Positions 4,802 to 28,734 of a stretch of DNA of 31,495 nt are shown one piece after another (the stretch's first letter is position 1; each line of letters begins with the position of its first letter). The DNA comes from a virus (Duplodnaviria > Heunggongvirae > Uroviricota > Caudoviricetes): IMG/VR virus record IMGVR_UViG_2778261428_000002. The stretch is one strand, 5' to 3'. A program made the position numbers and the translations under genes. The notes under the pieces were generated by a model. That model saw only the letters and a list, made by a program, of their open reading frames with translations. It was not told the origin of the DNA and did no database searches.

Positions 4802-4837
4802 GTCCTGTCTCCTTACCACTTTTAACTAACTGAAACA

Positions 4838-5044: not shown

Positions 5045-5124
5045 GGTGGTATATTGTGGTTATTAACATTACACAATCTATAATTCCCTCAATTGAGTGA
5101 ATTGTCAATGGTAATTATATCCAA
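5045..5124. promoter_or_regulatory. Divergent switch region between early-operon regulator and HTH repressor gene
   Basis: 80-bp AT-rich gap between divergent starts. Contains TTGTG-N13-CACAA and repeated CAATTG/GAATTG motifs that could be operators. Promoter elements not resolved. Confidence 0.4.
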
Positions 5125-11966: not shown

Positions 11967-12087
11967 TTATCGGCCCCGCTGCGCTGGCGGGCCTGTTCCC
12001 GCCAGTAAAGGGTTTCGCTTAGTGTGAGAGCGTCCATTGCCGACAGCGGCCAGTGAAAAATAACGGCGATATCGGCCTGCGCCTCTT

Positions 12088-12384: not shown

Positions 12385-12393
12385 GGTTCATCC

Positions 12394-12909: not shown

Positions 12910-12923
12910 GGTGCGTTCTCCTG

Positions 12924-14102: not shown

Positions 14103-14173
14103 AGGGCGAGCCTCCATCAGGTCAATAAATGACGATGGTGGCACGATGGCGGGGGGATGTAAGATCGCTTCCA

Positions 14174-14196
14174 CTTGTAACCACAGGCACTACAAG
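14174..14196 (-). promoter_or_regulatory. Late-promoter dyad CTTGTAA-N10-TACAAG upstream of FI
   Basis: Near-perfect 23-bp inverted repeat, centre about 83 nt upstream of the FI start. Same motif occurs three more times. Confidence 0.6.
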
Positions 14197-14208
14197 CAGA
14201 AGCGGTTT

Positions 14209-14967
14209 TTAATTCAGGATAATCAGTTCTGATGTAGCGCTGGCTGGCTTTCCGCCTACGGTATAGCGAATCCCTACCGTTGAGAATGTCAGGCCGTGGA
14301 AGATATCGCGCATTTCCGGGATGTCGTTAACCGAGATAATCATCCGGCCCTGCATGGTGCGCGCCAGCTCTGCCATACGCTGGTACTGCTCAAGGCCAAA
14401 CGGTACGCCGTAGCCTTCGGTTTTCCAGTATGGCGGGTCGCAGTAGAACAGGGTATGCGGGCGGTCATAGCGGCGAATACAGTCGGCCCAGTCCAGATTT
14501 TCAATACAGACGCGCGCCAGCCGCAGATGGGCGGCGGATAAATCTTCCTCCATACGCAGCAGGTTCAGGCGTGGCGGTGAGGTGGTGGCGGTACCGAACG
14601 TGCGGCTTTCCACCTTGCCGCCGAACGCCAGCTTTTGCAGATAGTAGAAGCGCGCCGCGCGCTGGATGTCGGTCAGCGTTTCTTCCGGGGTGATCTGGAG
14701 CCAGCGGTACATTTCGCGGCTGACCAGCGACCATTTAAACTGGCGGACAAACTCTTCTAAATGGTGCTGGAGTACCCGGTAGAGGTTGGTAACGTCACCG
14801 TTGATATCATTCAGCACCTCGGCCTGAGCGGGGCGTTTCATAAAGAACAGCGCCGCCGCTCCGCAAAATGGCTCGACGTAACAGCGGTGTTCAGGAAACA
14901 GCGGCAGGATGTGTTTCGCCAGTCGGCGTTTGCCGCCGATCCACGGAATAACGGGTAACGTATTCAT
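14209..14967 (-). CDS. dam: DNA adenine methyltransferase (Dam-like, N6-adenine)
   Basis: 252 aa. SAM-binding FCGAAALFF and catalytic DPPY (YCDPPYWKTEGY). Sits between tail-fibre genes and FI. Confidence 0.85.
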   Translation of the reverse strand: MNTLPVIPWIGGKRRLAKHILPLFPEHRCYVEPFCGAAALFFMKRPAQAEVLNDINGDVTNLYRVLQHHLEEFVRQFKWSLVSREMYRWLQITPEETLTDIQRAARFYYLQKLAFGGKVESRTFGTATTSPPRLNLLRMEEDLSAAHLRLARVCIENLDWADCIRRYDRPHTLFYCDPPYWKTEGYGVPFGLEQYQRMAELARTMQGRMIISVNDIPEMRDIFHGLTFSTVGIRYTVGGKPASATSELIILN

Positions 14968-15431
14968 ATTGTCAATTTTCCAGACCGACTGCTGACCAAC
15001 GCATACAGCAGATTAGGCGACCAGCGCCAGCTATCGCGCAGGTGCAGAAATTCGGCGCAGAACTCGCTGCAAAACAGGCGTTCCTGTTTGCCCTGACTGA
15101 GTAACACAAAACCCATGGCGCCCAGCCAGTCGTAACCTTTATCGTCATGCTGACGAAAAAAGGTTTCCAGTGCCAGCGGATCGGCGTTGATCGGGAGTAA
15201 ATCCCATTTCTCAATCGGCAGCGGCATTCGTTTGCTGCGCACGCCTTTATCCCGTACCGATGATGAGTAACAGATAAACAGGCCATCCGGCTGGCGTTCG
15301 ACCAGTTCGCAGTGAGAGTAAGGGCCGCGCGTGACCTGTCGAGTCAGCCAGTCGGAGAGCCGGGCAAGGCTGAAAAAGCGTTCAGCCCGGCCACGGTAGA
15401 ACGCCGCGTAAACCTGACTCATGGTTGCCAT
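14964..15431 (-). CDS. Hypothetical Cys/His-containing protein co-transcribed with dam; possible permuted papain-like hydrolase
   Basis: 155 aa. Stop overlaps the dam start. YSHCE and FCSEFC motifs (His before Cys). Fold assignment is speculative. Confidence 0.55.
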   Translation of the reverse strand: MATMSQVYAAFYRGRAERFFSLARLSDWLTRQVTRGPYSHCELVERQPDGLFICYSSSVRDKGVRSKRMPLPIEKWDLLPINADPLALETFFRQHDDKGYDWLGAMGFVLLSQGKQERLFCSEFCAEFLHLRDSWRWSPNLLYALVSSRSGKLTI

Positions 15432-16126
15432 CCTGACGAGTAGTCGTAACCCATAACCGCCTGCACCTCCGTCAATGCTTCAATGGCGGCAATATGCTGC
15501 TGGGCAGCGGCGAACAGGCGCATATCGTGCGCCATTGTTTCGGTTTCAAACCGGGCGGCGATTTCGTTGGTCAGTTCAATCAGGTTGTGATTTTTGGTCT
15601 GCCACATTAAGCCTGCCGGTATTTGTTTAGCCACGCCCATTTTGGTGAGCGAGAGCTGCTGGATGCGGCTGTTAGCGTCGCTGTGGAAATGGTGATTATC
15701 GATGATGATGTAGTCGGCGGTGATTCGATCTCGATACTGCTTTATTTCTGCCACCTTTGCCTGTCGGGCTTTTTCGATATCGGGCCGCCAGCGTTTGCCG
15801 TCCCAACGGACAAAGGCGTTATCGGGCTTCAGCAGAGTGACGTTATCCGGCAATGGCCCCAGATGATGAAGCTGTACCTCACTGCCCGCATCGGTATCAA
15901 ACGCGGTTTTACCGCGATGATCTTCTACCGCAAGCCATGTTTCTCCGTTGAATGTCAGGGCAAAGCCGCTCTGGCATTCGGGAGGCTCGATAGTGGTACA
16001 GCATTCCGGTAAGCCGGTGTTGGGGGCGATATAGGCGTCGCTGACGCCGATAAATTCCTGAGTGTCTGCCGCGTAGTTAAAGATGCGCAGGGTTTGCGGT
16101 TCGTCGGAAAATGCGAATGTGCTCAT
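15419..16126 (-). CDS. G: Tail fibre assembly protein (gpG/Tfa-like)
   Basis: 235 aa immediately downstream of the tail fibre gene. N-terminal region typical of Tfa chaperones ([11 protein letters not shown]). Confidence 0.8.
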
Positions 16127-17634
16127 GCCAGCCTCACGATATAGTTGAAAGCGATATTTTTAACGGTGTTTTCGGCGTTCCCGGCGGCATTCACCGTAAT
16201 AGTGTGGCTGTGGGAACCTAAGACGACGGTGTGGTTATGTGCGCCGATAGCCAGCGAATGGGTATGTGCGCCGATAGCAACGGTGTGGGCGTGGTTGCCA
16301 TTGGTACTTGTCACGTCCCTGAAATCTTCATCGCTATTATCAGAACCCACCACTGACGCCATATTCTTCCCTGTTTTTATGCCGTCAGTCGGAATTTGGT
16401 GGTTGTGCGCGCCGGTGGTATTGGTCGATTTTGTCCCGTAGTCAAACGCGCTGGTATTTTTGGTACCCAAATCGGTGGAACTGGCGGTTTTAGTACCTAA
16501 ATCCGTGTTAGTGGCGCTGGCGGTGTGACCATGCGATTTAATGCCATCCTGCTCCTGAGACAGTATCGTGCGTCCGCTGGCGGGTTTCCCCTTGATTGTC
16601 CAGCCGCGCATATCCGGGATTACACCGGAGGGGTAAGCGATTGCCAGCTTAGGGTAGGAGGTTTTATTGAAGGACTGACCGACCATCAGGGCGTAGCCGC
16701 TGGGGATGGCATCGGATGACCACGGTATCGGCGCGCCGACCGGACAGGTTTCCGCCGCCAGCGCTTTGTCTACTGCCGCTTTTACCGCTTTAGGCGTGGC
16801 GGCCAGCGTTTCGCTGGTGCTGTCGATGGCGCTACTAAGCTGGGCAACCCCTTTGCGCGTCGTGGTGGCATCCTGCTCGGTATATTTTCCATTAGCCAGA
16901 TCGTAGGCCGCTTTCACCGCTTTGGGCGTGGCGGCGAGCGTTTCGCTGGTGCTGTTGGTTTCGCTGCTAAGCTGGACAACCCCTTTGCGCGCTGTGGTGG
17001 CATCCTGTTCGGTATATTTTCCATTAGCCAGATCGTAGGCTGCTTTCATCGCTTTGGGCGTGGCGGCCAGTGTTTCGCTGATGCTGTTGGTCGCGCTGCT
17101 TAATTGGGCAAATCCTTTGGCGGTTAAGGTGGCGTCAGGATGGTTACGGGACTGCGCGTGGCGGGATAGGCCTTCATCCACATACTGTCTTGTTGCCAGC
17201 ACCACGGCAGGGTCGATTTTCAGTTCCACGTTTTCCGTATGGGAGACAATCAGCACCATGCGGATAATCTGTGTGCGGCCCGAACCTTCGATTAACTGCG
17301 GCTTGTAGGTTGGCGGGCAGTTGCCGACGGCAATCAGCCGGTCGTGCTCGTCGTACAGGCCAATTTCCCTGATCCACCATCCGCCTACGTCCTCCGGCAA
17401 TACCTGTTCGGCAATAATCTGGTTGGGGTTGTTAGGGTCAATACTGAGCGTATTCAGCGGCGCACGTCGGCGTTCGTTGACTAACCGGGTTTGGCCGGTA
17501 TCCGGCGTTGGCAGGTTACCATTTCCGTCACCAACGGCCATTTGCGTCAGATGAAGAGGCGAACCCTGTGCGGTGGCGGTCGCCAGCGCGGATTCGCCGG
17601 TAGTGGTTAATAGCGTGAAATAGGTAGCGCTCAT
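16123..17634 (-). CDS. H: Tail fibre protein (gpH-like)
   Basis: 503 aa. Conserved N-terminal baseplate-attachment region, three tandem ~44-aa repeats, C-terminal HxH repeats ([24 protein letters not shown]). Confidence 0.85.
16787..17182. repeat. Three tandem ~132-bp direct repeats inside the tail fibre gene
   Basis: Units begin near 16787, 16919 and 17051 and are near-identical. They encode the repeated segment [29 protein letters not shown]. Third unit diverges at its end. Confidence 0.8.
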
Positions 17635-18245
17635 GGGGCGATCCTTAGCGTATCAATCAGATGCAGCGCAGCCCCACGGTAGTTACGGCCCACGCTGTAT
17701 ACATGTTCAGGAATAAAGGGATAAACGGTGAGCGTATCGCCGGTATAGTTCGTCGCGGTGAACCAGACGTATCCGTTGCTCTGCAGGCTGATCGCCAGTC
17801 CGATTAAGTGGCGTGAACAGGGTTTTGCATCATCGATCAGGCGCTCCAGCTCTACATACATCTGCTCGGTGATGCCCTGTTCGCGCACGCCGACTTCCAG
17901 CGCGAAGGTGCCGGGAATACCTTCCGGGCGCAGTTGCCACCATTCGGTTACCCGGATAAGGAAACCGAGCGGCTCCACCGCACGCTGTAGTGCGCCGATG
18001 GTGCCTTTGTGTTGATGGATGTAGAAAGAAGCGGCAATCACCTGCCGCTTGGTATCGGCTGGCCAGTTTTCATCCCAGCGGTCAACGGAAAACGCCCATG
18101 CCAGATAAGGCAACAGCGCGGCGGGGCAGTTATCCGGTTGCCACAGGCTACGCAGCGGAACCGGCACTCGTTCAGTCAGGCTACCTGTTTGCGCCAGATT
18201 CTGCTCCAGCGAGCTGGCATTGTTGGGGAGCAGGGAGCTATTCAT
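17631..18245 (-). CDS. I: Baseplate protein I (gpI-like)
   Basis: Start moved to [14 protein letters not shown] (ATG at 18245), overlapping the J stop by 8 nt. P2 order. Confidence 0.8.
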
Positions 18246-19149
18246 CGCTTCCCCCGATGGCAATTTGCCATCCGGTACAGTAACTGGCCTGCGTTTTGCT
18301 GATGATGACGTCAACGGCAGGGGAGAGCAGTTCTACGCGCTGAACGCCGGTGACATGCAGCGCGGCGTAAATCGCGCTACGGCGAATATCGCGCCCGATT
18401 CGATGCTGGTCATTGACGTAGCTTTTTAGCCGCTGCTCGGCGGCCTGCCGAATGGGTTCCTGCTCCGGGCCGGGATAGCAATAAAGTACGGCATCAATCT
18501 GATACGGGATCACTTCAGCGGACTGAATGGTTGGGCGATCGCCTACCGGACGAATATCAATATCGTTCAGGGCGGTATCGACGATCGCCAGCAACTCTGC
18601 GCTGGCCAGCCCGTTGCCTTCGCGGGAGAGTACCGACACGGTGACGTAACAGGGATAGGGGCTGATAGCGGAGACGTCGGCGATACGCCCGTCTGCGCTG
18701 CGGGCGTGATATTCGTAGGCGGCGGTCGGGCCTGCGACGGACAGTCCTTCAAACGCCTGCTGTGCGCGCATTCGTAAATCGCTGTCGGATTCATAAACCG
18801 GATCAACGGGCGGTATCGCCGTACTGTCTCCGGGCGAGATTTGCAGGCGAAAAACCTTAAAGTTAGCGACCAGATTATCCAGATCGTGCCTGACGGCATG
18901 GGCCAGCATATTGGCGACGGCGGCTTCATTGATGCGTACCCGCAGCGCCATCTCTAAGTAAGTATTTTCCTGCAACAGCTTGACGAAGGGTTCTGATTCA
19001 TAGCCCAGCGTGCGGGTAACTTCTGCTTGCTGTTCGGCAGGATACAGGCTGATAAAGCGCTGCTTGCGGGCGGTGAATAGGGTTTCAAAATCGAGCGTTT
19101 CCACCACATTGGGGATGGGTAACTGGCTTAAATCGGTCAGCGCGCTCAT
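18238..19149 (-). CDS. J: Baseplate assembly protein J (gpJ-like)
   Basis: Start moved to MSALTDLSQ (ATG at 19149), overlapping the W stop (ATGA). About 303 aa. Confidence 0.85.
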   Translation of the reverse strand: MSALTDLSQLPIPNVVETLDFETLFTARKQRFISLYPAEQQAEVTRTLGYESEPFVKLLQENTYLEMALRVRINEAAVANMLAHAVRHDLDNLVANFKVFRLQISPGDSTAIPPVDPVYESDSDLRMRAQQAFEGLSVAGPTAAYEYHARSADGRIADVSAISPYPCYVTVSVLSREGNGLASAELLAIVDTALNDIDIRPVGDRPTIQSAEVIPYQIDAVLYCYPGPEQEPIRQAAEQRLKSYVNDQHRIGRDIRRSAIYAALHVTGVQRVELLSPAVDVIISKTQASYCTGWQIAIGGSDE

Positions 19150-19496
19150 GAACGTCTCCTGTCGATCGGAATGGAGAATGTCCACGGCTGGCCGGGGATA
19201 TCGGTACGTTCGGCTTCAATGGTGACGCTGAGATCGGCATTATCCGCAGCAAAGTCCACGCCGATAATCTCGATGCGAGGTTCCCAGCGCGTCAGCGCCA
19301 TGACCACCGCCGACATCACCCGTAGCCGGGTAGCGCCATCGTTGGGCTGGTCGATCAGGTTGCCGACCAGTGAGCCATAATCGCGGCGCATCACGCGCGT
19401 ACCTACTGGTGTGGTCAGAATGTCTTTTACGGATTGCTTAATGTGCAACTCATCGCTTAATGCTCTGCCGGTTTCGGCGTTCATACCGAGGTACAT
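19146..19496 (-). CDS. W: Baseplate protein W (gpW/GPW-gp25 family)
   Basis: 116 aa in the conserved V-W-J-I order. Confidence 0.85.
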   Translation of the reverse strand: MYLGMNAETGRALSDELHIKQSVKDILTTPVGTRVMRRDYGSLVGNLIDQPNDGATRLRVMSAVVMALTRWEPRIEIIGVDFAADNADLSVTIEAERTDIPGQPWTFSIPIDRRRS

Positions 19497-20095
19497 TACT
19501 GCGGTCCTCCGGTATTGCTACCCCCGCGCTCCACGCCTGTATGCGTATGGGTATGGACGGTGACGCCGTTAGAGGTAAAGCTGCCGCCGCTGTGGGTGTA
19601 AGCGCCTTTAAGCGTGCCGCCTTTTTTAACCGACAGCGTGGCGGTTTCCAGATGCTGAGTGCAGACGACGAGCGGTGTATCCAGCGTGACGCGGGTGCTG
19701 GCTTCGACCAGTGCGGTTTTGATGCCGGTCGCTTTTAACGCGCTGGAGCGCGGATCGTATTCAATCACCGCACCATCGGGGTAAACGCTATGGTGAACCT
19801 GTTCATCCAGCAGCGGGGCGGGGCTGGCGTCAGAGTAAATGGCCGGAAGCGCCACGGCGGTGGTTAACTCTCCGCTTAAACAGAGCAGTAACACCTGCTC
19901 GCCTGTTGATGGCCGCCACCACGTCCGGGCATCATCGGCGCGTAGCGTCAGCCATGGTATCCAGTTGGTGGTCAGTTCACCAGTGTGAATGCGTACTCGA
20001 TCGCCCTTCACCTCTTCAACGGTGCCGGTACGGATCAGGTTCTCTATGCGCCGGTGCAGTTCGGCGAGGTTGGCTGGGTGGTTTGCGTCGCTCAT
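19496..20095 (-). CDS. V: Baseplate central spike/assembly protein V (gpV-like)
   Basis: Start set at ATG MSDANHPANLAEL; the ORF track start at 20125 is a TTG. C-terminal region resembles P2 V as I recall it (RVTLDTP.VVCT, KGGT). Confidence 0.85.
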   Translation of the reverse strand: MSDANHPANLAELHRRIENLIRTGTVEEVKGDRVRIHTGELTTNWIPWLTLRADDARTWWRPSTGEQVLLLCLSGELTTAVALPAIYSDASPAPLLDEQVHHSVYPDGAVIEYDPRSSALKATGIKTALVEASTRVTLDTPLVVCTQHLETATLSVKKGGTLKGAYTHSGGSFTSNGVTVHTHTHTGVERGGSNTGGPQ

Positions 20096-20139
20096 GCCGG
20101 AATCATTGGTATTCTGGCATGACAATGGTAGCTTTAACG

Positions 20140-20162
20140 CTTGTATTGTGGATTTTTACAAG
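20140..20162 (-). promoter_or_regulatory. Late-promoter dyad CTTGTAT-N10-TACAAG upstream of V
   Basis: 23-bp inverted repeat between the moron stop (20166) and the V start. Spacing to V is shorter than at the other three sites. Confidence 0.55.
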
Positions 20163-20165
20163 CGG

Positions 20166-20621
20166 TTAAATCCAGTGGATTTCGGTAACTTCAGGGTTCG
20201 CACAGCCTGTTTTAAGAGACACAAAAACGGCATATTTATAACCCAATTGTTCTTTAAACGCCTGCAGCTTGAGGAGGTCTTTTTCTCTGCCATTTCTTTG
20301 GTTGTTGGTCGATTTTTTCAGTTCGAACGCAATCAGGTTTTCATCGGTTCCTCGGTGGTGAACGATAATATCCGGGATAACATCACGTTCGCTTGCATTT
20401 CCGTTAGGTTCAACTGCGTAAATTAATCTTTTAACTGCATCCCCATTTCTATTGTATTCACAGTCTACATCCCATTCCGGGAAGTTATTTTCCAGATATC
20501 TACCCAAGCGGTTGGCGATAGCCCGTTCACTATTATCTGTAATCAGCAAATGAGCATCGTTACGCAAAAGTTCATTGATAGCGGCTCGCGTTGATTCTTC
20601 AACAGTATGTTGATTAGGCAT
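20166..20621 (-). CDS. Moron: hypothetical 151-aa protein with possible PD-(D/E)xK nuclease-like motif
   Basis: AT-rich ORF between S and V (P2 orf30 position). AAGGA RBS. Residues VIPDIIVHH...IAFELKK give a D-x19-ExK pattern. Confidence 0.65.
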   Translation of the reverse strand: MPNQHTVEESTRAAINELLRNDAHLLITDNSERAIANRLGRYLENNFPEWDVDCEYNRNGDAVKRLIYAVEPNGNASERDVIPDIIVHHRGTDENLIAFELKKSTNNQRNGREKDLLKLQAFKEQLGYKYAVFVSLKTGCANPEVTEIHWI

Positions 20622-20660
20622 GGCAGGTAGTAATCCTTTTGAATATGAGAAAGTTTGTTA

Positions 20661-21110
20661 TTACACCGCTAAATATTGCATGATAATAGATTGAATTTGT
20701 AAATAATCTTGCTGAGAAAATCCCAGCAACTGCCTTTGTGCGTAATCCACCTCCAACCCGTAGCGATTTACCCGATCGCGCAGGCCATACTGATGAACGG
20801 CGGCCATATGTCGAACGCTGCTGAGAAACGAAATGGTTGCTCCCTGCCCATCGCCTTTCCCTTTCATATAGCGTGCGGTACGCAGCTTACGGAACATCTG
20901 GCGGCGGATCTTTCCTTTTTTACTGCGTAGCTGAGGCTTACGGGGGGCGAACGGTGAGCCATCCGGGTTTTTCTGTGCGGTTATCCGCTGGCTTTGCGAC
21001 TGACGCAGGCTGTGGGCGATTTCCCGCGCCAGTTGGGTTCGGCTTGCCGGGGAGAGCTTTGCAAGCAGGCCATCGGCCCAGCGGTGGAGTTGTTGCAGGT
21101 CGTCGCTCAT
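20661..21110 (-). CDS. S: Tail completion protein S (gpS-like)
   Basis: 149 aa in conserved order. 3' end is AT-rich. Confidence 0.8.
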   Translation of the reverse strand: MSDDLQQLHRWADGLLAKLSPASRTQLAREIAHSLRQSQSQRITAQKNPDGSPFAPRKPQLRSKKGKIRRQMFRKLRTARYMKGKGDGQGATISFLSSVRHMAAVHQYGLRDRVNRYGLEVDYAQRQLLGFSQQDYLQIQSIIMQYLAV

Positions 21111-21568
21111 CAGGTACTCACTATCGTTTCACCGCGACAGGCGATTTCCCAGCCATTGTAACCGCTTTCTGGCTGCTGGTCGTTACAGTGCTTTGCTTCC
21201 AGCCCGCCGTCGCGCGGGCGCACAATGACGCGCTCGGTCAGCGCCAGCTTGATGCTGATATCGTAACTTTGGTGGTCGATGGCTTCGGCTTCAAACTGAA
21301 ATGCCTGCTGGCGCAGATCGCTGTTGGCGAAGGCTTCCTGCTGGTGAAGCGACATCCAGCCGACCAGCGGCACCATCAGCGTATCGGGATCGGCGGCGTA
21401 GTCGGTGATCAACAGTTCCAGCGTGTACTGGTATTCAAAACTGGTGCTGCGCCCTGCGGTGGCGACGATCCGGCCCTTATTGATAAAGACCCGCAGCGCG
21501 TCCGGGTTGTGTTGTAAGTGCGGGATACTGGCGGTCAGTAGTTCACGGATGAGCTGCGCTTTGTGCAT
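21110..21568 (-). CDS. R: Tail completion protein R (gpR-like)
   Basis: 152 aa, conserved position upstream of S. Confidence 0.8.
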   Translation of the reverse strand: MHKAQLIRELLTASIPHLQHNPDALRVFINKGRIVATAGRSTSFEYQYTLELLITDYAADPDTLMVPLVGWMSLHQQEAFANSDLRQQAFQFEAEAIDHQSYDISIKLALTERVIVRPRDGGLEAKHCNDQQPESGYNGWEIACRGETIVST

Positions 21569-21818
21569 CGATACGCTCCTGACAACTAATCGTCATATCC
21601 ACCTGCGCAGCGCACTGGTGCCACGCGTTTTCAGTTTCCAGCAGCGCGCGGCTTAAATCTTCATTACTCTGCGGTTGAAGCGCCGGAAGCTGGCAGGGGA
21701 TCAGCTTCGGGCAATTGGCGGTAAGCCGCACTGCCGGTAATGGTGGCGTGCTGGTGCAGGCGGATAATATCAGCGGGCAAAGCAGTATCAGCCCATTCAC
21801 GAAGCTGTTGATTTTCAC
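21543..21818 (-). CDS. lysC: Outer-membrane spanin lipoprotein (LysC/Rz1-like)
   Basis: 91 aa. Signal peptide with lipobox LSAC. Starts inside lysB in another frame, the usual spanin arrangement. Confidence 0.75.
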   Translation of the reverse strand: MKINSFVNGLILLCPLILSACTSTPPLPAVRLTANCPKLIPCQLPALQPQSNEDLSRALLETENAWHQCAAQVDMTISCQERIDAQSAAHP

Positions 21819-22113
21819 GTTTCAGTTTCTCCAGTTGCTGGTTGCGCTGCTTTAGCTGGTCATGGGCGGCGGCGGTTTGCTGTTGCAGCGTCAGGTATGC
21901 CTGCTGGTTGGCGTCGGCCTGTTGCTGGAGTTCGTCCAGTTCCTGCACCTTCGTCATCAGGGATTCGGTCAGGCTGGCAATCTCAGTGTCGGCCAGCCTG
22001 ATGCGCTGCTGTTGTTCAATAAGCTGTTCCTGCTGCGTCATACGCTGCCAGTTCGTCCAGAGCAGCATCACGACGAGCAACAGCAGTGGCGCGGTTTTCA
22101 TCCAGCTCATCAT
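21664..22113 (-). CDS. lysB: Inner-membrane spanin (LysB/Rz-like)
   Basis: 149 aa. N-terminal transmembrane segment followed by Gln/Glu-rich coiled coil. Confidence 0.75.
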   Translation of the reverse strand: MMSWMKTAPLLLLVVMLLWTNWQRMTQQEQLIEQQQRIRLADTEIASLTESLMTKVQELDELQQQADANQQAYLTLQQQTAAAHDQLKQRNQQLEKLKRENQQLREWADTALPADIIRLHQHATITGSAAYRQLPEADPLPASGASTAE

Positions 22114-22700
22114 GCTGCCGCCTGACTGAATTTTTCGAAGGCGACCGCCAGCTTCGTATCGTACTGGTTGCGTTTGTACTGCGGCCCGTTGTAGCGGCGG
22201 GCGAACTCTGGCCAGTTCTGCGCCTTTATTGCGTCGTGGATCTTTGGGTTGGCCTCAACGAAGCGCACGAAGGTGTCAAGCTGCATCTGCTCGCTGTCGT
22301 TCATCTGCTTTTCAAAGTCGGCGGCAGAGGCGTAGCCCAGCGCTTTCCAGTGAAAGCCCATAATCTGGAACAGTCCCCAGCTTGCGCTCTCAATAGCGGC
22401 GGCGCTGTGGATCTGTTTCGCCAGATTCAGGCGGTAGTGCTCACGGCTTCCGCCCTGATAGCCGCCTGCGCTCTTGTTCACCAAATCCGGGTAATTCTGC
22501 GCCAGCCGGTCGGCGTCCAGTCCGTGGCTTCTTAACTGGCGGTACATGATATGGCGTTCAAATAGAAGGGCCGGACGGCCATCGGGCAGGAAGCCGCGAG
22601 AACGGGCTTCAACCTCCTGCACCGCCTGTAACGCCGCCAGCGGGATACCCAGATACAACGCGGCGGCCTGCTGTTGATCATGGGTGAGTGTACGAGTCAT
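22110..22700 (-). CDS. Endolysin (putative muramidase-family lysozyme)
   Basis: 196 aa between the holin-like genes and spanins. WGLFQIMGFHW motif. Family assigned from memory. Confidence 0.7.
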   Translation of the reverse strand: MTRTLTHDQQQAAALYLGIPLAALQAVQEVEARSRGFLPDGRPALLFERHIMYRQLRSHGLDADRLAQNYPDLVNKSAGGYQGGSREHYRLNLAKQIHSAAAIESASWGLFQIMGFHWKALGYASAADFEKQMNDSEQMQLDTFVRFVEANPKIHDAIKAQNWPEFARRYNGPQYKRNQYDTKLAVAFEKFSQAAA

Positions 22701-22992
22701 GGCGTGGCTCCTTCGGGTGGTGACGTAAGGGTTTAATCAGACTGGCGACATTGCCGCGTGCAGCGCTCAGGCAAATCAGCAGCACGATGTTGATGGCGGT
22801 TTCGGCGATAAACACGTAGCGGTACAGGCTGAAACAAATCAGTACCGCTACCGATGCGGTGCAGCACATCAGCAGCCACGCCAGCCAGCTATACAGCGGG
22901 CGATAGGTGGTACCGTGAACGCGGCGATAGAGGAACAGACGGATGGTAATCAGCAGGCAAATAATGGCGTTAAGGCTCAGGATCAGTTTCAT
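22678..22992 (-). CDS. Small multi-pass membrane protein, putative holin/antiholin-like
   Basis: 104 aa with three hydrophobic segments, between holin and endolysin. Confidence 0.55.
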   Translation of the reverse strand: MKLILSLNAIICLLITIRLFLYRRVHGTTYRPLYSWLAWLLMCCTASVAVLICFSLYRYVFIAETAINIVLLICLSAARGNVASLIKPLRHHPKEPRHDSYTHP

Positions 22993-23378
22993 TTGCGTCC
23001 CCTTAAAAAGTCGAGCAATTGACCGGGGTTATCCAGTTGTCGGATGGCCCATAGCAGCGCCTTGACGGTCAGCGCCGATGAGAGCAGCGCCCCGATACCA
23101 GGGGAGACTTTTTCCATCAGATGCTGCGGCAGATATCCGGCGACCAGCGCGGTGAACAGGTCGGCGGTCAGCAGGCCGATCACAAACGCCACGCAGAAGA
23201 AAATGATGCGCAGGAACAGGCCGATCTCTTTTTGCGAAATCACCAGCAGCAGCGCGCCACACAATGCGCCTAGCACTACCGGAGCCTGTAGCGTCGGGAA
23301 CAGCGTGGCAATGGAGAATGCGCTTACGGAAGCGGCAACGACGGTGCCGGTTACGGGTTCGTTCATAGTCAGTCCCAC
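22989..23378 (-). CDS. Holin (gpY-like)
   Basis: 129 aa hydrophobic membrane protein immediately downstream of X. Confidence 0.65.
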   Translation of the reverse strand: MGLTMNEPVTGTVVAASVSAFSIATLFPTLQAPVVLGALCGALLLVISQKEIGLFLRIIFFCVAFVIGLLTADLFTALVAGYLPQHLMEKVSPGIGALLSSALTVKALLWAIRQLDNPGQLLDFLRGRK

Positions 23379-23572
23379 AGGTTGATTCGTTGACGCGTGG
23401 CGGCGGAAGCCTGTTCAGGTACGTTCACCGCCGTACCGTGCGGCAGGCGCAGCGGCAGTTCGCACAGGCGCGGGTTGTCGCGGTAAAGCCGTTCGACAAT
23501 CCCGGCAGTGCGCCCGAAGGTGCGCCAGCAGATCTGGTCGAGCGTTTCGTTTTGCAGGCTATAGACGATCAT
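23369..23572 (-). CDS. X: Tail protein X (gpX-like)
   Basis: Start moved to ATG MIVYSLQNETLDQICWRTFG, giving 67 aa. Resembles P2 gpX as I recall it. Confidence 0.8.
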   Translation of the reverse strand: MIVYSLQNETLDQICWRTFGRTAGIVERLYRDNPRLCELPLRLPHGTAVNVPEQASAATRQRINLWD

Positions 23573-23644
23573 GGCGTTTCCCACGCGGCGTCAGGTGATG
23601 CGGGGATGGTGGCACAGGGGCGGGAAGTGAAGGGAAGGCTTCCG

Positions 23645-23667
23645 CTTGTAACTGAGGGCAGTACAAG
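23645..23667 (-). promoter_or_regulatory. Late-promoter dyad CTTGTAA-N10-TACAAG upstream of X
   Basis: 23-bp inverted repeat, centre about 84 nt upstream of the X start, just downstream of the island's small minus-strand genes. Confidence 0.6.
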
Positions 23668-23685
23668 CGGGAGCGATTGGCGGGG

Positions 23686-24006
23686 TTATGCCTCGCCGGT
23701 GTCGGTGTTGATGATTTGCCGTTCTGCGGACTTCTGGATTTGGATCAGCGCCGGGATCAGCAGTGCACTGGCTAGCAGGCCGTGTCCTAACTGGCACAGG
23801 CTTTCCGGTGAGAACTCCAATACGTTGCTGTCGGCGAAGGATACGAAGGTTTTACCCAGAAAGTGCAGGCCGTGGCACAATCCGGCGCAGCACTCCTCGC
23901 TGCTGTTGGCCAGTTGCAGGGTGTCGTCTGCGTTGAGATTCGAAATATCCAGCTTGCGGATCACATCGGCCAGTTCGGAAGAAAGCAGGTTGGTTTCAGG
24001 CACCAT
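23686..24006 (-). CDS. Hypothetical 106-aa protein, second gene of a coupled pair
   Basis: ATG at 24006 with GGAGGTG RBS. Start overlaps the upstream gene's stop by 11 nt. Contains a Cys-rich stretch (EECCAGLCHGLH). Confidence 0.5.
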   Translation of the reverse strand: MVPETNLLSSELADVIRKLDISNLNADDTLQLANSSEECCAGLCHGLHFLGKTFVSFADSNVLEFSPESLCQLGHGLLASALLIPALIQIQKSAERQIINTDTGEA

Positions 24007-24202
24007 GGCGCACCTCCAGCGGCTTGCAGGAGACAAATACCAGCGGGAAACCCGCCAGCAGGTCGCGAGCCTCGATCTCTGTTGTTGCCAGTACGGACAC
24101 CAGACGCAATGGCTGGATCTCGCGCAGCAGGCGGTTGGAACGGGCGTTCAGGAAGGTGTAGAGCTTTGAATGTGCGCGTATGTTACTATTAGCGGTAGCC
24201 AT
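23996..24202 (-). CDS. Hypothetical 68-aa protein, first gene of a coupled pair
   Basis: ATG at 24202 with GAGG RBS. Divergent from the RHH/Doc operon. Confidence 0.5.
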   Translation of the reverse strand: MATANSNIRAHSKLYTFLNARSNRLLREIQPLRLVSVLATTEIEARDLLAGFPLVFVSCKPLEVRHGA

Positions 24203-24273
24203 AGCATTAGCCTCAATAATGTTGTGGTCAGAGGCCCGTTGGTGTTGGTAGCACCTGCGGGCTTCGTTGTTTT

Positions 24274-24293
24274 TGTATGACTGTTGTCATACA
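24274..24293. promoter_or_regulatory. Perfect 8-bp inverted repeat (TGTATGAC-tgtt-GTCATACA), candidate operator in a divergent promoter region
   Basis: Lies in the 134-bp gap between the 68-aa gene and the RHH gene. Followed by a possible sigma70 promoter TTGCTT-17-TATAGC. Confidence 0.5.
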
Positions 24294-24336
24294 CTTGCTT
24301 TACTAACTGTAGGAAAATATAGCAGGAGTATAGCAA

Positions 24337-24516
24337 GTGTCAACCATTTCTATTCAAGGCAAAGGCAGTAAGCAAATCGCGTTACGAGTAGATCCTGCTC
24401 TTGAGGCCGGAATTCAGCAGGCACTTAAAGCTGATGGTGATGCCTCTGTTTCCGCGTGGATTAAGCGAATTATCAGGAAAGAGCTTCAGTCACGAGGCAT
24501 TGAAACAAAAGATTAG
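24337..24516 (+). CDS. Ribbon-helix-helix (Arc/CopG-like) DNA-binding protein, GTG start
   Basis: 59 aa, not in the ORF track because it starts with GTG. AGGAG RBS 7 nt upstream. KQIALRVDPALEAGIQQALKADG...WIKRIIRKEL fits a strand-helix-helix pattern. Confidence 0.6.
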   Translation: MSTISIQGKGSKQIALRVDPALEAGIQQALKADGDASVSAWIKRIIRKELQSRGIETKD

Positions 24517-24562
24517 CAGATAGGTATATACTTTTAATAAAGAGTATTAGAGGTAAAAAATA

Positions 24563-24751
24563 ATGGCGAAGAATAGCAGTCCTGCCAGCCGATACGGTAT
24601 CAAGGTCGTAAAAAGAGACAGTATGAGTGGGCAGTTCGTACCCGTCGAAATGAAACTGGACGGCCCGGAAGGTGAGCGTGTGATTAAAAAGTCGGCAGAA
24701 CGTATTTATGCCAGACACAACAAAGTCATTAAGGCGCTGGCTAACCGATGA
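24563..24751 (+). CDS. Putative antitoxin partner of Doc (family not recognised)
   Basis: 62 aa with GAGGT RBS. Stop overlaps the doc start (ATGA). Confidence 0.55.
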   Translation: MAKNSSPASRYGIKVVKRDSMSGQFVPVEMKLDGPEGERVIKKSAERIYARHNKVIKALANR

Positions 24752-25125
24752 TTGATGCACATTTGGTGATTGGAATTCACGATTTTATTCTTGCTCATGA
24801 GCCGGGATTGGTTGGTTATCAGGATGCTGGCCGGGTCGAGGCAACACTGGCGCGGGTGGATAACCGTATTCTGTATGAGCAGATGAATGATATTTTCCAG
24901 ATCGCCGCATCTTATGCGGTTGCCATCGCCAGAGGGCACGTTTTTGCTGATGCCAACAAGCGAACGGCACTGGTGACGGCGTTGACATACCTTGATATGC
25001 AGGGTGTGAACCTCAAGCGAACACAAAAGCTGGAAGATATTATGGTGGATGTGGCTGAGGGAACGCTGAATCTGGATGATTTAGCCGATATTTTCTATAC
25101 CCTTAGTGATGTAAATGCTTCCTGA
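24748..25125 (+). CDS. doc: Doc (death-on-curing) / Fic-family toxin
   Basis: 125 aa. Fic/Doc active-site motif HVFADANKRT (HxFx(D/N)(A/G)NKR). Confidence 0.85.
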   Translation: MIDAHLVIGIHDFILAHEPGLVGYQDAGRVEATLARVDNRILYEQMNDIFQIAASYAVAIARGHVFADANKRTALVTALTYLDMQGVNLKRTQKLEDIMVDVAEGTLNLDDLADIFYTLSDVNAS

Positions 25126-25130
25126 CGTTA

Positions 25131-25155
25131 CAGCCCGACAGATCGGGCTGTTTTT
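25131..25155. terminator. Rho-independent terminator hairpin after doc
   Basis: CAGCCCGA-caga-TCGGGCTG followed by TTTTT. Lies between the convergent doc and 91-aa gene stops. Confidence 0.7.
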
Positions 25156-25157
25156 AA

Positions 25158-25394
25158 TTATGCCGCCTCAATACCCGCGCTGGTTAACATATAGTGGCCC
25201 CAGTGGGTTTTCTTCAGGTAACCGGCCAGTTCCATCTGCGTCACAATAAATTCAGCGTTAACCATTTCTATACCTGCGTAGTCGGCCAGATCGCTCAGCG
25301 GCCATGTGCTGCGAACGCCGACGCTAACTATGGTGTCTCTGATGCGGCGGGCGGTATCGGTCATTGGGCGGGTTCTGGCGGCCTGAATAGTCAT
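25158..25394 (-). CDS. Small hypothetical protein, possible winged-helix DNA-binding protein
   Basis: ORF track start (25433) is a GTG. I prefer the internal ATG (MTIQAAR) with AGGGGA RBS, giving about 78 aa. Fold call is a guess. Confidence 0.5.
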   Translation of the reverse strand: MTIQAARTRPMTDTARRIRDTIVSVGVRSTWPLSDLADYAGIEMVNAEFIVTQMELAGYLKKTHWGHYMLTSAGIEAA

Positions 25395-25509
25395 GGTATT
25401 TTCCCCTGTAGGTTCTTTCGTTGGGTCAGACACTAACTCTGGTGGGGAAGGGGCATCCAGCGTTCAGATGAGGCGATACGGTGATGCGCATCGCATATCC
25501 GTACTCTTT

Positions 25510-25977
25510 TTATACCAGAACAAACGTACTGCGCGGCTTGCCCAGAATATCCCGCACGGCGAAGCGGGCATCGCGCGCCAGATCGTCAGCGATGCTTTCC
25601 TTCTGTTCCGCCAGTTTGCTGCCGTGGGTGGTGGCATCAAAGTTACGATAGTGTTCCAACAGGTTCGCGTGCGTCAGGCTGTACACCGCGCGGCGGTAGC
25701 GGTGCTGGTTAACGCTTTCGCCGTCCAGCCGTTCGGTCGTGGTTTCCGCAATGTAAGTTGTGCCACGGTTTTCCTGTTCCAGCCGCCATTCCCGCAGGTC
25801 GTCGTTTACGCTGGCCAGCGCAATCAGCAGTGCCTCGCGCAGACGTTCGTTGGTAATGGTGCTGTCCAGCCGTTGGGTTGCACGCAGATGTTGCGTATCA
25901 ATATCGGGAAAGAAAGGGTGGTTGCTGATAACCAACCCCGGCAGACTGGCGGCGGGGGCAACCTGAATAAAGCTCAT
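25510..25977 (-). CDS. L: Head completion/stabilisation protein L (gpL-like)
   Basis: Start moved to ATG MSFIQVAPAASLPG (GGGAGA RBS). Conserved order after M. Confidence 0.8.
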   Translation of the reverse strand: MSFIQVAPAASLPGLVISNHPFFPDIDTQHLRATQRLDSTITNERLREALLIALASVNDDLREWRLEQENRGTTYIAETTTERLDGESVNQHRYRRAVYSLTHANLLEHYRNFDATTHGSKLAEQKESIADDLARDARFAVRDILGKPRSTFVLV

Positions 25978-26062
25978 TATATTCTCCCTGTTCGGCGGTG
26001 GACGGCGGGCGTTGCAGTGGTATAACCACGCGCGGCCAGCCGTGCCGCCGGTCGTGAGGGTC

Positions 26063-26725
26063 TCACTCTGTGGACTGGTCGGGCGGGTTATTGCGAATTT
26101 GCCGCTCCAGTTGCTCAATCAGCTTTTTCACGCCGACGTTCTCATCCAGTTGTAGTGCGCGCAGGAACTGCGCCAGCGCCTCCTGCGGCTGGCTTTCGCT
26201 TTGTGCCAGCCCCAATGCCTTGTGCAGGCGAGCGCGAACCTGATCCGGCATGTCCTGATCGGCTAACAGCCCGGCAAAGGCCAGCAGGCTGTCCAGCGCC
26301 GCAAAGGTACCGGCGGTAAGCTGTTTCAGGGCGGTGTCGGCGACTTCTTCAGCCACCATGCAGGCGGTCTGCCGCTGGTACTGATCCGGCGTTACCCAGC
26401 CGTGTTTCAGGGCGTGTTCCGCCATGGGGTAGGCAGCGGGAAAGTCGCCGGTATCCAGCGTCCAGAGCAGCACCGTCATAAACACATCGTCCTGCTGTTG
26501 GCTGTCGGCAGCCAGAACGCCGCTTACCCACGGCTGGTAATCGGGCAGCAGTTCACCCTTAACCTCGATTTTGCGTTCAATGGACTGGATCGCTTTCAAG
26601 CGGCGTTTATCGGTTGCCAGCTTTGCCAGCATTAGTTCATAGCCGTTGGCGTAGGTCTGGTTTTCCTGTTGATTTGCGGCCTGCGCCTGATGGCGCAGCA
26701 GGTGGCGGCGGGCAGGCGTCATCAT
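26063..26725 (-). CDS. M: Terminase small (endonuclease) subunit M (gpM-like)
   Basis: 220 aa. Resembles P2 gpM as I recall it (DDVFMTVLLWTLDTGDF, ENVGVKKLIEQLERQ). Confidence 0.85.
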   Translation of the reverse strand: MMTPARRHLLRHQAQAANQQENQTYANGYELMLAKLATDKRRLKAIQSIERKIEVKGELLPDYQPWVSGVLAADSQQQDDVFMTVLLWTLDTGDFPAAYPMAEHALKHGWVTPDQYQRQTACMVAEEVADTALKQLTAGTFAALDSLLAFAGLLADQDMPDQVRARLHKALGLAQSESQPQEALAQFLRALQLDENVGVKKLIEQLERQIRNNPPDQSTE

Positions 26726-27741
26726 ACGTCTTTATCCTCAAACTTGATATTCTCAAACAGGCAACCGCAGCCGAAGTCTTCCACCACAAAGGCATCGTTG
26801 GAGGACTCGAAGTTCTTTACCCGGTCACGTTTGGGGTTATCAATAATGGCGCGGCGGCGAGTGCCTTTCTGGACATAGATAGACAGGTTACTGAAGGCGG
26901 TGACCAGAATGGTGTTGCGCGGGAAACCCGGCACGCGCACGGCAGGGCGACCGCCGATGGTTTTCTGGCTGACCAGAATCTGCCCCGCCAGTTTTTCGCT
27001 GTTCTCATTGTGCTGGTTGAGTATCGGGAAGTATTTGTCGTGCAGGACGCCACGGCCACAAATGGCGACCAGATCTGCGCCGTCGACATGCCATTCGTCA
27101 ATCAGGTTTTCTTCGCCGTCATTGACCATGACGTCCAGATTCTCATAGTCGCCGCCTTTGCCAATGATGATTTTGCCGGAACCTTCCACACCTTCGTTCA
27201 TGACGCGTTCCGGGGCGTGGTCGCGATACTGCTGCAGCCAGCCTTTGTTAACGTCCTGCAGAAGGGGGTAACGCTGGAAGTCGGTCTGGGCTGCAACGAG
27301 GATACCGTTGAAGCCAATCAGGATGCGGTCTAATCCCTGTCGCCGGGTGATGCTGTCGCGCACGCGGATCTGAAAATCCGGGTGGGCGGCCCATGCGTCC
27401 AGTTTGGCGTATTTCAGCGCGGTGTCGTAGTTGGTTTTTTCGCAGCGGTAGCGGTTAGTCGTCATCGACGTGGGGTCGACGGGTTCACGCTCACGCTGGC
27501 TGGTATCGGTGCGGCTGGCCGTGGGGCGATCAATGCCGATGCCGACTTTTTCTCCTTCCTGATCCACCACTTCATGGACGTTGATTTTGGTCAGGAATTC
27601 TACGGACGCCTGAATTTTGGTTTCCAGCGTCTGCTGTACGGAAGGTTCTACCGTGAATTCGACGGCGGCGCTCTGGACACCGGACAGCCCGGCGACGGTT
27701 TCAACGTAAGCGTTGTATTTTAAGCGGGTTTCGTTACGCAT
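26722..27741 (-). CDS. N: Major capsid protein N (gpN-like)
   Basis: 339 aa. Resembles P2 gpN as I recall it (TRLKYNAY, FTVEPSVQQTL, GKGGDYENLD). Confidence 0.9.
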   Translation of the reverse strand: MRNETRLKYNAYVETVAGLSGVQSAAVEFTVEPSVQQTLETKIQASVEFLTKINVHEVVDQEGEKVGIGIDRPTASRTDTSQREREPVDPTSMTTNRYRCEKTNYDTALKYAKLDAWAAHPDFQIRVRDSITRRQGLDRILIGFNGILVAAQTDFQRYPLLQDVNKGWLQQYRDHAPERVMNEGVEGSGKIIIGKGGDYENLDVMVNDGEENLIDEWHVDGADLVAICGRGVLHDKYFPILNQHNENSEKLAGQILVSQKTIGGRPAVRVPGFPRNTILVTAFSNLSIYVQKGTRRRAIIDNPKRDRVKNFESSNDAFVVEDFGCGCLFENIKFEDKDV

Positions 27742-27751
27742 CGGGGGTTCC

Positions 27752-28579
27752 TTAACAGTCGGTTTTCAGGTCGGTGTTGCCACCGGTGGCAGGCTGGCGC
27801 GATGGTGTGGCCGGTTGCTTTGCAAGCTGAGTTTTCAGCGTGGAATAATCGGCCTGTAGCTGCTGATGCTGCGTTTGCAGTTCAGACAGCTCAGCGCGAA
27901 TTTGGTCGACCTGTTCGCTACAGAACGTCGCTACTTCCTCCACCGCCAGATGCACGTCGTCCCGTTGCTGGTCGTCGTGGTTCTGCTTTTTACTTAACAG
28001 CGCCTTGATGCGGGTAAACAGCGATTCGCCGCTGCTTTCCTCCACTTCTTCAAACTCCAGTTCAATCTCTTCTGCCACGCTGAAAATGTTCTCCGGCGAG
28101 CGCTTACGCGCCGCCAGCGGGTTGCTCTGCGCGCTGGCGCAGAAGGAGAGCATTTCGGTGCCGAGACTGGCCGGATCGTCGGTGACTGCCAGCCCGACCA
28201 GATAGGCTTTGCCTGTATCGGCAAATTTCGGATCGACTTCCACCGAGGTATAAACCTTCTGCCCTTTGCGGTTCATTTCGACCAATGAATCCGTTGGGGC
28301 CAGACGTGCCAGCAGCGCCAGTTTGCCTTTCAGGGGGCCGTCTTCGGCGATCTCTTCTTTCTTCACCATCGCCACGTCGCCGTAGCGTTGGAACGGGCCG
28401 TCCGGCAGGATGCCTTTCAGGTGCTCCAGATTAATGCGCGCGCCGTACACTTTTGGGCTGTATGTATCGGCCATTTGCTCGATCCACTGGCGTTCAATAG
28501 TGCGCTTGTCGCAGGTTGCGCCTTCTACGGCGATACGCACCCATTTAGAGAGCAGTTTTTTCTTTGGCTTTTTGTCCAT
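27752..28579 (-). CDS. O: Capsid scaffolding protein O (gpO-like)
   Basis: 275 aa, acidic coiled-coil C-terminal half, first gene of the head operon. Confidence 0.85.
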   Translation of the reverse strand: MDKKPKKKLLSKWVRIAVEGATCDKRTIERQWIEQMADTYSPKVYGARINLEHLKGILPDGPFQRYGDVAMVKKEEIAEDGPLKGKLALLARLAPTDSLVEMNRKGQKVYTSVEVDPKFADTGKAYLVGLAVTDDPASLGTEMLSFCASAQSNPLAARKRSPENIFSVAEEIELEFEEVEESSGESLFTRIKALLSKKQNHDDQQRDDVHLAVEEVATFCSEQVDQIRAELSELQTQHQQLQADYSTLKTQLAKQPATPSRQPATGGNTDLKTDC

Positions 28580-28651
28580 AACGTTCAGTCCCGGCGTTGG
28601 CTAAATAAGCGAATGGTCGGGTAGTCCTCCGCTATCAGGCAACGGGCTTCG

Positions 28652-28674
28652 CTTGTAATCATCCGGGTTACAAG
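28652..28674. promoter_or_regulatory. Late-promoter dyad CTTGTAA-N10-TACAAG in the O/P divergent intergenic region
   Basis: Perfect 23-bp inverted repeat, centre about 84 nt from the O start and 72 nt from the P start. A degenerate half-site lies nearer P. Confidence 0.6.
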
Positions 28675-28734
28675 CGGCATTGCTACGCGCAGGCAGCGGC
28701 TTGTTTACGCTGACGGCAGAAACGAGAGGACGTT

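Follow-up and report, generated by a model that had tools for sequence, protein, structure and literature searches.

Four copies of a perfect dyad stand ahead of the late operons of a P2-like prophage, and comparison with characterised phages and related prophages makes it very probable that they are the sites of the prophage's own Ogr-type activator, which would define five late promoters, FI, V, X, O and P. The dyads lie in a stretch of 31,495 nucleotides, which was analysed as a whole and is termed the window here. The motif and the activator system are those of the familiar late-gene switch of the P2 phage family, and the N13 spacing of the half-sites has already been published for phiRSA1 and phiRSY1, whose late motif was given as TGTTGT-N13-ACAACA (PMC5694545). 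No paper was found in the literature under the plain form TGT-N13-ACA. The dyads raise no new question on transcription activation, and their main value is one of annotation, in that they delimit the late operons of this prophage family and point to the likely regulator. In addition, the N13 dyad of the phiCTX/phiRSA1 type reaches prophages for which Edwardsiella ictaluri harbours the nearest relative in the genome collection.

Occurrence and spacing of the dyad

The symmetric core of the motif is CTTGTA-N11-TACAAG, equivalent to TGT-N13-ACA, which occurs exactly four times in the 31.5-kb window. The preliminary description gave the motif as CTTGTAA-N10-TACAAG, in which the seventh base, A, has no mirrored partner in the opposite arm. 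This string does match at the four places reported there, on the minus strand at 20140-20162 and on both strands at 28652-28674:

14174-14196, minus strand: dyad before the tail sheath gene FI (PF equivalent), CTTGTAGTGCCTGTGGTTACAAG on the late strand
20140-20162, minus strand: dyad before the baseplate spike gene V (PV equivalent), CTTGTAAAAATCCACAATACAAG
23645-23667, minus strand: dyad before the tail gene X and the lysis/tail-completion genes, CTTGTACTGCCCTCAGTTACAAG
28652-28674, both directions: single dyad common to the divergent genes O (minus strand) and P (plus strand), CTTGTAATCATCCGGGTTACAAG

The identities of the downstream genes are based on Pfam, i.e., FI as sheath, V as spike, X as tail, O as scaffold and P as terminase. 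The motif scan covered the 31.5-kb window, and thus the prophage as far as a point within Q, and copies at non-promoter positions, which would have spoken against the proposal, did not turn up. No match to the string was obtained in 100 dinucleotide-preserving shuffles, compared with the four in the window. When up to three mismatches were allowed, the window contained no copies with one or two mismatches and five extra matches with three, and the total of nine is at the chance level (7.8 expected). The absence of near-copies therefore confines the motif to four places in the window. The spacing from TGT to ACA is 13 nt, as had been counted earlier, against N12 in P2. The form TGT-N12-ACA occurs only twice in the window, fewer than expected by chance, and each time within a large ORF.

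The presumed activator gene and the early region

A candidate for the protein that binds the dyads is encoded in the early operon, where an Arc-like gene (4838-5044) lies on one side of it and the primase gene (1828-4482) on the other:

4571-4819, minus strand: Ogr/Delta-family zinc-finger gene, presumed dyad-binding activator (Pfam PF04606, E 1.2e-19, with a family cut-off of 26.3 bits)

The same ORF matches phrog_603 (E 1.4e-27), and the motif CX2CX22CX4C can be read in its translation. Its start codon is likely one of the two adjacent ATGs before KCPHC, at 4801 or 4798. The protein shows 40% identity to P2 Ogr, and full-length alignments with the activators of P2, 186 and phiRSA1 (P2 Ogr, 186 B and phiRSA1 ORF38) gave only 32-38% identity; consequently, the DNA specificity of the Ogr homologue is unproven by homology. 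The values of 38, 34 and 32% among these four sequences also do not separate the N13-type activators from the N12-type ones. Two other DNA-binding proteins are encoded by the prophage, the Arc-like one and a CI-like one (5125-5460). The early switch region between their genes carries a different palindrome, ATTGTG-N13-CACAAT (5053-5077), and no late dyads.

Candidate promoters downstream of the dyads

The preliminary description placed three of the dyads at 83-84 nt from the downstream start codon, which agrees with our measurements from the dyad centre of 83 nt for FI (centre at 14185, ATG at 14102), 84 nt for X and 84 nt for O. The corresponding distances are 72 nt for P and 56 nt for V, so that the V ATG (20095) falls where the transcript start would be expected. 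At every dyad, a hexamer resembling a -10 element is found at an offset of 43-50 from the centre, although these assignments are weak matches picked by eye at a common offset:

14135-14140, minus strand: putative -10 hexamer CACCAT of the FI promoter, offset 45-50 from the dyad centre
20102-20107, minus strand: putative -10 hexamer AATGAT of the V promoter, offset 44-49
23606-23611, minus strand: putative -10 hexamer CACCAT of the X promoter, offset 45-50
28613-28618, minus strand: putative -10 hexamer GACCAT of the O promoter, offset 45-50
28706-28711, plus strand: putative -10 hexamer TACGCT of the P promoter, offset 43-48

The sequence CTTACA is present 17 nt upstream of the FI hexamer, and an identical 11-mer, gtgccaccatc, occurs at the FI and X promoters. 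The 155-bp gap between O and P contains one dyad with -10-like hexamers on either side. A scan of 13500-29500 for consensus sigma-70 promoters reported nine promoter-like sites elsewhere and none in any of the four intervals between dyad and start codon. Judged from the sequence, the hexamer positions together with the missing sigma-70 consensus appear to reproduce the geometry of the P2 late promoters.

The proposal that the dyads mark activator-dependent late promoters is thus supported, on comparative grounds, by several features, that is, their location at the heads of late operons, the presence of an Ogr/Delta gene, the exact arms in relatives, the constant offset of the -10-like hexamers and the lack of a sigma-70 consensus. 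P2 Ogr binds its dyad, and activation needs the C-terminal domain of the alpha subunit of RNA polymerase. By analogy with P2, 186 and P4, we infer binding of the Ogr homologue, a -55 geometry and a contact with the alpha subunit for the prophage. After induction, the early operon with the Arc-like gene, ogr and the primase gene would yield the activator, which would bind each CTTGTA-N11-TACAAG dyad, with its centre some 55-57 nt ahead of the transcript start, and bring in the host sigma-70 RNA polymerase at promoters in which a -10 can be recognised but a usable -35 is missing. The O/P site would act in both directions, and the V transcript would probably start at or beside the V start codon. 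It should be noted that the terminase gene P appears to carry a frameshift at 29355-29356 in the window copy, a possible sign that the prophage is defective and that its late circuit is not in use.

Comparison with characterised phages

In P2, dyads with TGT/ACA half-sites are located ahead of the same operons (P/O, V and FI) as here, and the activator is likewise a small C4 zinc-finger protein encoded by the phage (Ogr); P4 Delta uses the same P2 promoters. In the P2 record, pF and pV have activator sites upstream of them and a single site is shared by pO and pP, with the transcript starts of the latter two at 55-56 nt on either side of the site centre; for P2 dyads generally, the distance is about 55-58 nt. 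According to the same record, V transcription begins at the V start codon itself, and the annotated V start is 57 nt from the dyad centre, compared with 56 nt here. In most lineages where both the dyad and the ATG could be located, P2 included, the V start codon is 55.5-58.5 nt from the centre. However, the repeats in the P2 sites are not exact (PF and PO/PP have TGT-N12-CCA, PV has TTGT-N11-ACAA), whereas the arms here are perfect over 6 bp with N13. The position of ogr also differs, since in P2 the gene is served by a promoter of its own downstream of D and here it is inside the early operon.

In 186, the promoters that depend on B, an Ogr homologue, are p12, pV, p32 and pJ; the record gives one B-protein site for the divergent pV and p12 and another (pJ) ahead of the sheath gene. 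The 186 sites differ from the present ones in their spacing, TGT-N12-CCA, and in that there is no site before the X homologue. The suggestion that one dyad may serve both O and P is consequently in line with the arrangement annotated in the curated P2 and 186 records, and it is also assumed for Stenotrophomonas phage Smp131, where the predicted PP' and PO' were assigned to one 18-bp site (PMC3931495). Smp131 has sites ahead of its tail operons as well and encodes an Ogr-like CX2CX22CX4C protein; by the description in that paper, it differs in having mostly N12 sites, with one site of 19 bp by its coordinates, and a rearranged operon content (PMC3931495).

The spacing TGT-N12-(C)CA is shared by P2, 186 and SW9, while N13 is usual in the phiRSA1/phiCTX/Acica branch. 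For example, phiRSA1 and the phiCTX-like BR319a (Citexvirus) have N13 dyads upstream of P/O, V and FI, as here, and the BR319a core, (C)TTGTA-N11-TACAA(G), is essentially that of the prophage, while the outer arm bases of phiRSA1 differ. The early layout of the phiCTX-like/phiRSA1 group is also the same, with integrase, primase, ogr in the early operon, a divergent HTH repressor and gene D, although its Ogr proteins reach at most 45% identity with the one in the window. This group has three sites and four promoters, to which the clade described here adds a fourth site, before X. In all the Peduoviridae genomes examined (P2, 186, phiRSA1, BR319a and Acica), a TGT...ACA dyad before P/O, V and FI accompanies an ogr homologue.

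Conservation in related prophages

No close phage emerged when the DNA of 12000-31495 was searched for near-identical sequence in the phage collection, the best hit being 73% and confined to the sheath gene. The genome contigs were scanned with the V protein, which gave only six loci; one of these, L004, is a vestige in which just the V dyad and a truncated V are left. Four relatives have intact late regions (L002, L008, L009 and L010; 84-99% O identity). In the four relatives, the arms are exact at 13 of the 13 orthologous positions present (4 of 4 in L002, and all three positions within the locus in each of L008, L009 and L010), while the spacers and flanks diverge.

At the V dyad, identical arms enclose five different spacers and lie in unrelated flanks in the window, L008, L002/L010, L009 and L004. 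This dyad stands 56 nt from the V ATG in the window and also in L002, L008 and L009, against 53 nt in L004. The hexamer AATGAT is present in the window and all four intact relatives; in L004, it is shifted one base downstream. The FI dyad of L002 has exact arms at the same place with a different spacer. At O/P, the arms are exact in the four intact relatives and the spacer differs in L002, L009 and L010, in which the O hexamer GACCAT is identical. On the other side, at the putative -10 element of P, gtttacgctgacggcagaaacg is conserved in L002 and L009. The X dyad has the same spacer as the window in all four.

Alternative explanations

The dyads could instead be bound by another regulator, Arc-like, CI-like or a host factor, with the Ogr homologue acting elsewhere. 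Such a reading draws on the fact that the binding of the dyads by the Ogr homologue is inferred only, and on the two further DNA-binding proteins of the prophage, 4838-5044 and 5125-5460. However, the switch region between the genes of these two proteins has its own palindrome and zero late dyads, and dyad and ogr homologue were found together in every Peduoviridae genome examined, which leaves this reading very little probability. Among host factors, sites of the CRP type were rejected on spacing, since the consensus TGTGA-N6-TCACA corresponds to N10 between TGT and ACA, as against N13. It is next to inconceivable that the repeats are a chance or mobile-repeat feature without a regulatory role. 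Short palindromes are generally common, and nothing else speaks for chance, whereas the shuffled sequences contained no match, all four copies are in short intergenic gaps before late operons, and several relatives preserve the arms where the orthologous sites lie.

The dyads might also act at the RNA level, as hairpins at the ends of the upstream operons involved in termination, attenuation or transcript stability, rather than as protein sites on DNA. In favour of this, the FI and X sites are 12 and 18 nt past the stop codon of the preceding gene, their stems extend to about 13-14 bp with folds of -22.2 and -20.6 kcal/mol (z -5.2 and -5.9), and the sequence TTTTT comes directly after the FI hairpin when the opposite strand is read. 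However, none of the sites has a U tract behind its hairpin on the late-gene strand, and a terminator scan reported none of the four; the strong FI and X hairpins were accordingly rejected as rho-independent terminators. The O/P site is between divergent start codons, where no upstream operon ends, and its fold on the O strand is no better than those of shuffled sequences (z -1.3). The V and O/P sites form only about 7-9 pairs, and a search of the whole window against Rfam at the gathering threshold matched no family. Moreover, the six arm bases are invariant without compensatory substitutions, while the loop and flanks are replaced, which indicates recognition by a sequence-specific protein. 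As a general explanation, hairpins are therefore highly improbable, while a second or alternative role is possible at FI and X in view of their longer palindromes and strong predicted RNA hairpins. Binding by the Ogr-type activator remains the preferred reading for all four dyads.

A probable additional promoter before X

In P2, the O operon continues through X to S without a promoter before X, whereas the prophage has a dyad there. A promoter at this position is found in none of P2, 186 and phiRSA1, and the X-upstream dyad was absent from all 70 other distinct X-upstream regions examined. In its sequence, the X promoter resembles a duplicate of the FI promoter, with 57% identity between them outside the arms and with the -10 region and an extended palindrome in common; the palindrome is imperfect at FI (cgcttctg...tggaagcg).

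A broader scenario, which we put forward only tentatively and consider rather unlikely as a whole, is that the Edwardsiella-type clade added a fifth Ogr-dependent promoter at X, that the long X and FI palindromes may also serve as RNA hairpins by which the 3' ends of the operons before them are marked or protected, and that the L-X junction is safe for insertions. If true, the X promoter would divide the long P2-type O operon in two, with O-N-M-L as the head unit and X to S as the unit for lysis and tail completion, and promoter and hairpins together would make the junction a safe place for accessory genes, such as a toxin-antitoxin block. The extra X promoter is, in any case, a small testable example of late operon structure drifting among P2-like phages. 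In the window, a toxin-antitoxin accessory block of 1.85 kb is indeed located between L and X. An origin of the X promoter from this block was rejected, as L002, L009 and L010 have the X dyad without the block; the dyad-to-dyad distance is 3168-3169 nt in these three relatives, compared with 5007 nt where the accessory block is present.

Probable late-promoter dyads in the window

The preliminary description reported four copies of CTTGTAA-N10-TACAAG. The string is indeed present at 14174-14196, 20140-20162, 23645-23667 and 28652-28674, with 0 matches in 100 dinucleotide-preserving shuffles. The core, CTTGTA-N11-TACAAG, is symmetric and can be written TGT-N13-ACA; the N13 counted in that description is correct. 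The flanking genes were identified with Pfam and PHROGs as follows.

Genes around the dyads
12924-14102, minus strand, tail sheath FI
19496-20095, minus strand, baseplate spike V
23369-23572, minus strand, tail protein X
within 25510-26118, minus strand, head completion L
26063-26725, minus strand, small terminase M
27752-28579, minus strand, scaffold O
from 28735, plus strand, terminase P

A scan of the window with up to three mismatches found no copies with one or two mismatches and five with three, and the total of nine is about that of chance (7.8 expected). The motif is thus not spread over many non-promoter positions. TGT-N12-ACA has only two matches in the window, fewer than expected, both within large ORFs.

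The dyad centres are 83, 84 and 84 nt from the start codons of FI, X and O, which agrees with the 83-84 nt described for three dyads, and 72 nt from that of P. When the promoters are aligned on the dyad, putative -10-like hexamers occur at a nearly constant offset in all five.

Putative -10-like hexamers and their offsets from the dyad centre
FI promoter, CACCAT, 45-50
X promoter, CACCAT, 45-50
O promoter, GACCAT, 45-50
V promoter, AATGAT, 44-49
P promoter, TACGCT, 43-48

From these offsets, transcript starts would be expected about 55-57 nt from the dyad centres. No consensus sigma-70 promoter was found in the dyad-to-start-codon intervals (scan of 13500-29500), as expected for activator-dependent promoters. 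The V start codon (ATG at 20095) is 56 nt from the dyad centre (window 20095-20162), at the expected transcript start. This distance is 55.5-58.5 nt in most P2-like lineages with a locatable dyad and an ATG start (for example, 10239-10310 in L001 and 13332-13399 in L092, two comparison loci), and in the P2 record, transcription of V is annotated as beginning at the V ATG. Therefore, the V mRNA may be leaderless across the P2-like family.

Comparison with characterised phages

In the curated record of P2, activator-binding sites are annotated upstream of pF and pV, and pO and pP have a single site (3057-3087), with transcript starts (3127 and 3016) at a distance of 55-56 nt from its centre in either direction. 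Similarly, pV and p12 share one B-protein site in the 186 record, and pJ has another. Consequently, one dyad serving the divergent O and P promoters, as had been proposed, is a known arrangement. The sequence of the sites is TGT-N12-CCA in P2 and 186, except that P2 pV has TTGT-N11-ACAA. Ralstonia phage phiRSA1 has TGT-N13-ACA upstream of P/O, V and FI, and TGTTGT-N13-ACAACA has been published for phiRSY1 and phiRSA1 (PMC5694545). At the same three positions, the phiCTX-like phage BR319a carries (C)TTGTA-N11-TACAA(G), essentially the core in the window, and Acica has N13 spacing at P/O and V. Thus phages of the branch with the early-region layout listed below normally have N13 spacing. Among the four activator sequences available, no tracking of activator sequence with dyad spacing was shown.

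Left part of the window
1-1200, plus strand, tyrosine integrase
1828-4482, minus strand, toprim primase
4571-4819, minus strand, Ogr/Delta zinc-finger gene (PF04606, E 1.2e-19; 40% identity to P2 Ogr)
4838-5044, minus strand, Arc-like gene
5125-5460, plus strand, divergent HTH repressor gene

The layout is the same in Burkholderia phage KL3, phiRSA1 and the phiCTX-like Pseudomonas phage, whereas that of P2 differs. A perfect palindrome, ATTGTG-N13-CACAAT (5053-5077), lies within the 80 bp that separate the Arc-like gene from the divergent repressor gene. It differs from the late dyads and is probably an operator of the lysis-lysogeny switch. Downstream of the repressor gene lies a low-GC (38-43%) cassette (5492-7578) of two genes, one for an NA37/NdpA-like protein and one for a RelA/SpoT-domain protein that weakly matches the PADLOC candidate PDC-S33. 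This cassette, which occupies the slot beside gene D, may have an accessory anti-phage or toxin function.

Conservation and nature of the dyads

Among species-representative genomes, the closest match is an Edwardsiella ictaluri prophage (L002; V 90% identical), and the O proteins of three viral contigs (L008-L010) are 84-99% identical to that of the window. Exact CTTGTA and TACAAG arms occur at every orthologous position held (4/4 in L002, 3/3 in each contig). L002 also has a two-mismatch copy, TTTGTTTCCCAGCTTTTTACAAG (9248-9270), about 700 nt upstream of its V dyad, without counterpart in the window. A prophage remnant (L004, 9955-10561) on the Acerihabitans sp. KWT182 chromosome retains a truncated V gene and a dyad that matches CTTGTA-N11-TACAAG exactly, with no further dyad and no recognisable late operon within 10 kb.

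Five versions of the region upstream of V (window, L008, L002/L010, L009 and L004) differ completely in the spacer and in both flanks, and the arms lie 56 nt from the V ATG in the window, L002, L008 and L009, and 53 nt in L004. No compensatory changes in the arms were found among the compared loci. Fixed arms amid replaced surroundings point to a putative site of sequence-specific protein binding and not to a stem in RNA. A per-position conservation table is circular, the sites having been chosen by their arms, and is not counted as evidence.

As RNA, the long palindromes around the FI and X dyads are predicted to form stable folds (-22.2 and -20.6 kcal/mol), and a secondary RNA role may exist there. 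However, these palindromes lack a following U tract on the late strand, a terminator scan gave no matches at them, the O/P dyad sits between two start codons, and no Rfam family matches, so that RNA elements as the main role are very improbable. A protein other than the Ogr homologue is also unlikely to bind the dyads, since the early switch region has its own distinct palindrome and each of the genomes compared has an ogr homologue alongside the TGT...ACA dyad. Homology and comparative conservation support the original reading of the dyads as predicted late-promoter sites of the well-described Ogr type, in the already reported N13 subtype, at which an Ogr-type activator would act. The dyads are ordinary for this class of phage; the clade-specific feature is one predicted extra promoter.

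A predicted additional promoter before X

In P2, 186, phiRSA1, KL3 and BR319a, L and X abut or overlap, without a site between them. A TGT-N11-14-ACA dyad lies within 160 nt of X in 4 of the 74 distinct X-upstream regions (85 loci). These four regions belong to L002, L008 and L009, and one of them also stands for a second locus. On this distribution, the clade of the window has a predicted fifth late promoter, before X, which would set the head genes O, N, M and L apart from X, two holin genes, the endolysin gene and the genes for tail completion.

Identity outside the arms is 57% between the FI and X promoters (14160-14215 and 23630-23685), compared with 20-43% for other pairs. These two promoters also have in common the 11-mer gtgccaccatc at the -10 position and the extended palindrome GCTTCCG-CTTGTA...TACAAG-CGGAAGC. 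These features suggest that they are paralogous, one copied from the other.

Between L and the X dyad, the window contains a 1.85-kb accessory block (23686-25510) that the E. ictaluri relative lacks.

Accessory block
23686-24036, minus strand, ORF of unknown function (phrog_19484)
24343 to 24316, minus strand, near-consensus sigma-70 promoter (11/12 matches)
24563-25125, plus strand, Fic/Doc-like toxin gene, preceded by a small ORF
25130-25151, terminator-like hairpin at the toxin gene

The X promoter as a response to this insert was rejected, since L002, L009 and L010 keep the dyad without it.

The terminase large-subunit gene P (28735-30518) is broken into two ORFs near 29355-29356 because one T present in L008 (99% identical) is missing. 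P of L008 is an uninterrupted ORF of 594 aa, and P is also intact in the other assemblies carrying an identical O protein. The copy in the window either is defective or contains a sequencing error. In one assembly with an identical O protein (L096, 3001-4652), gene calls pass from O straight to L; genes N (capsid) and M (small terminase) may have been deleted there or have escaped gene calling.
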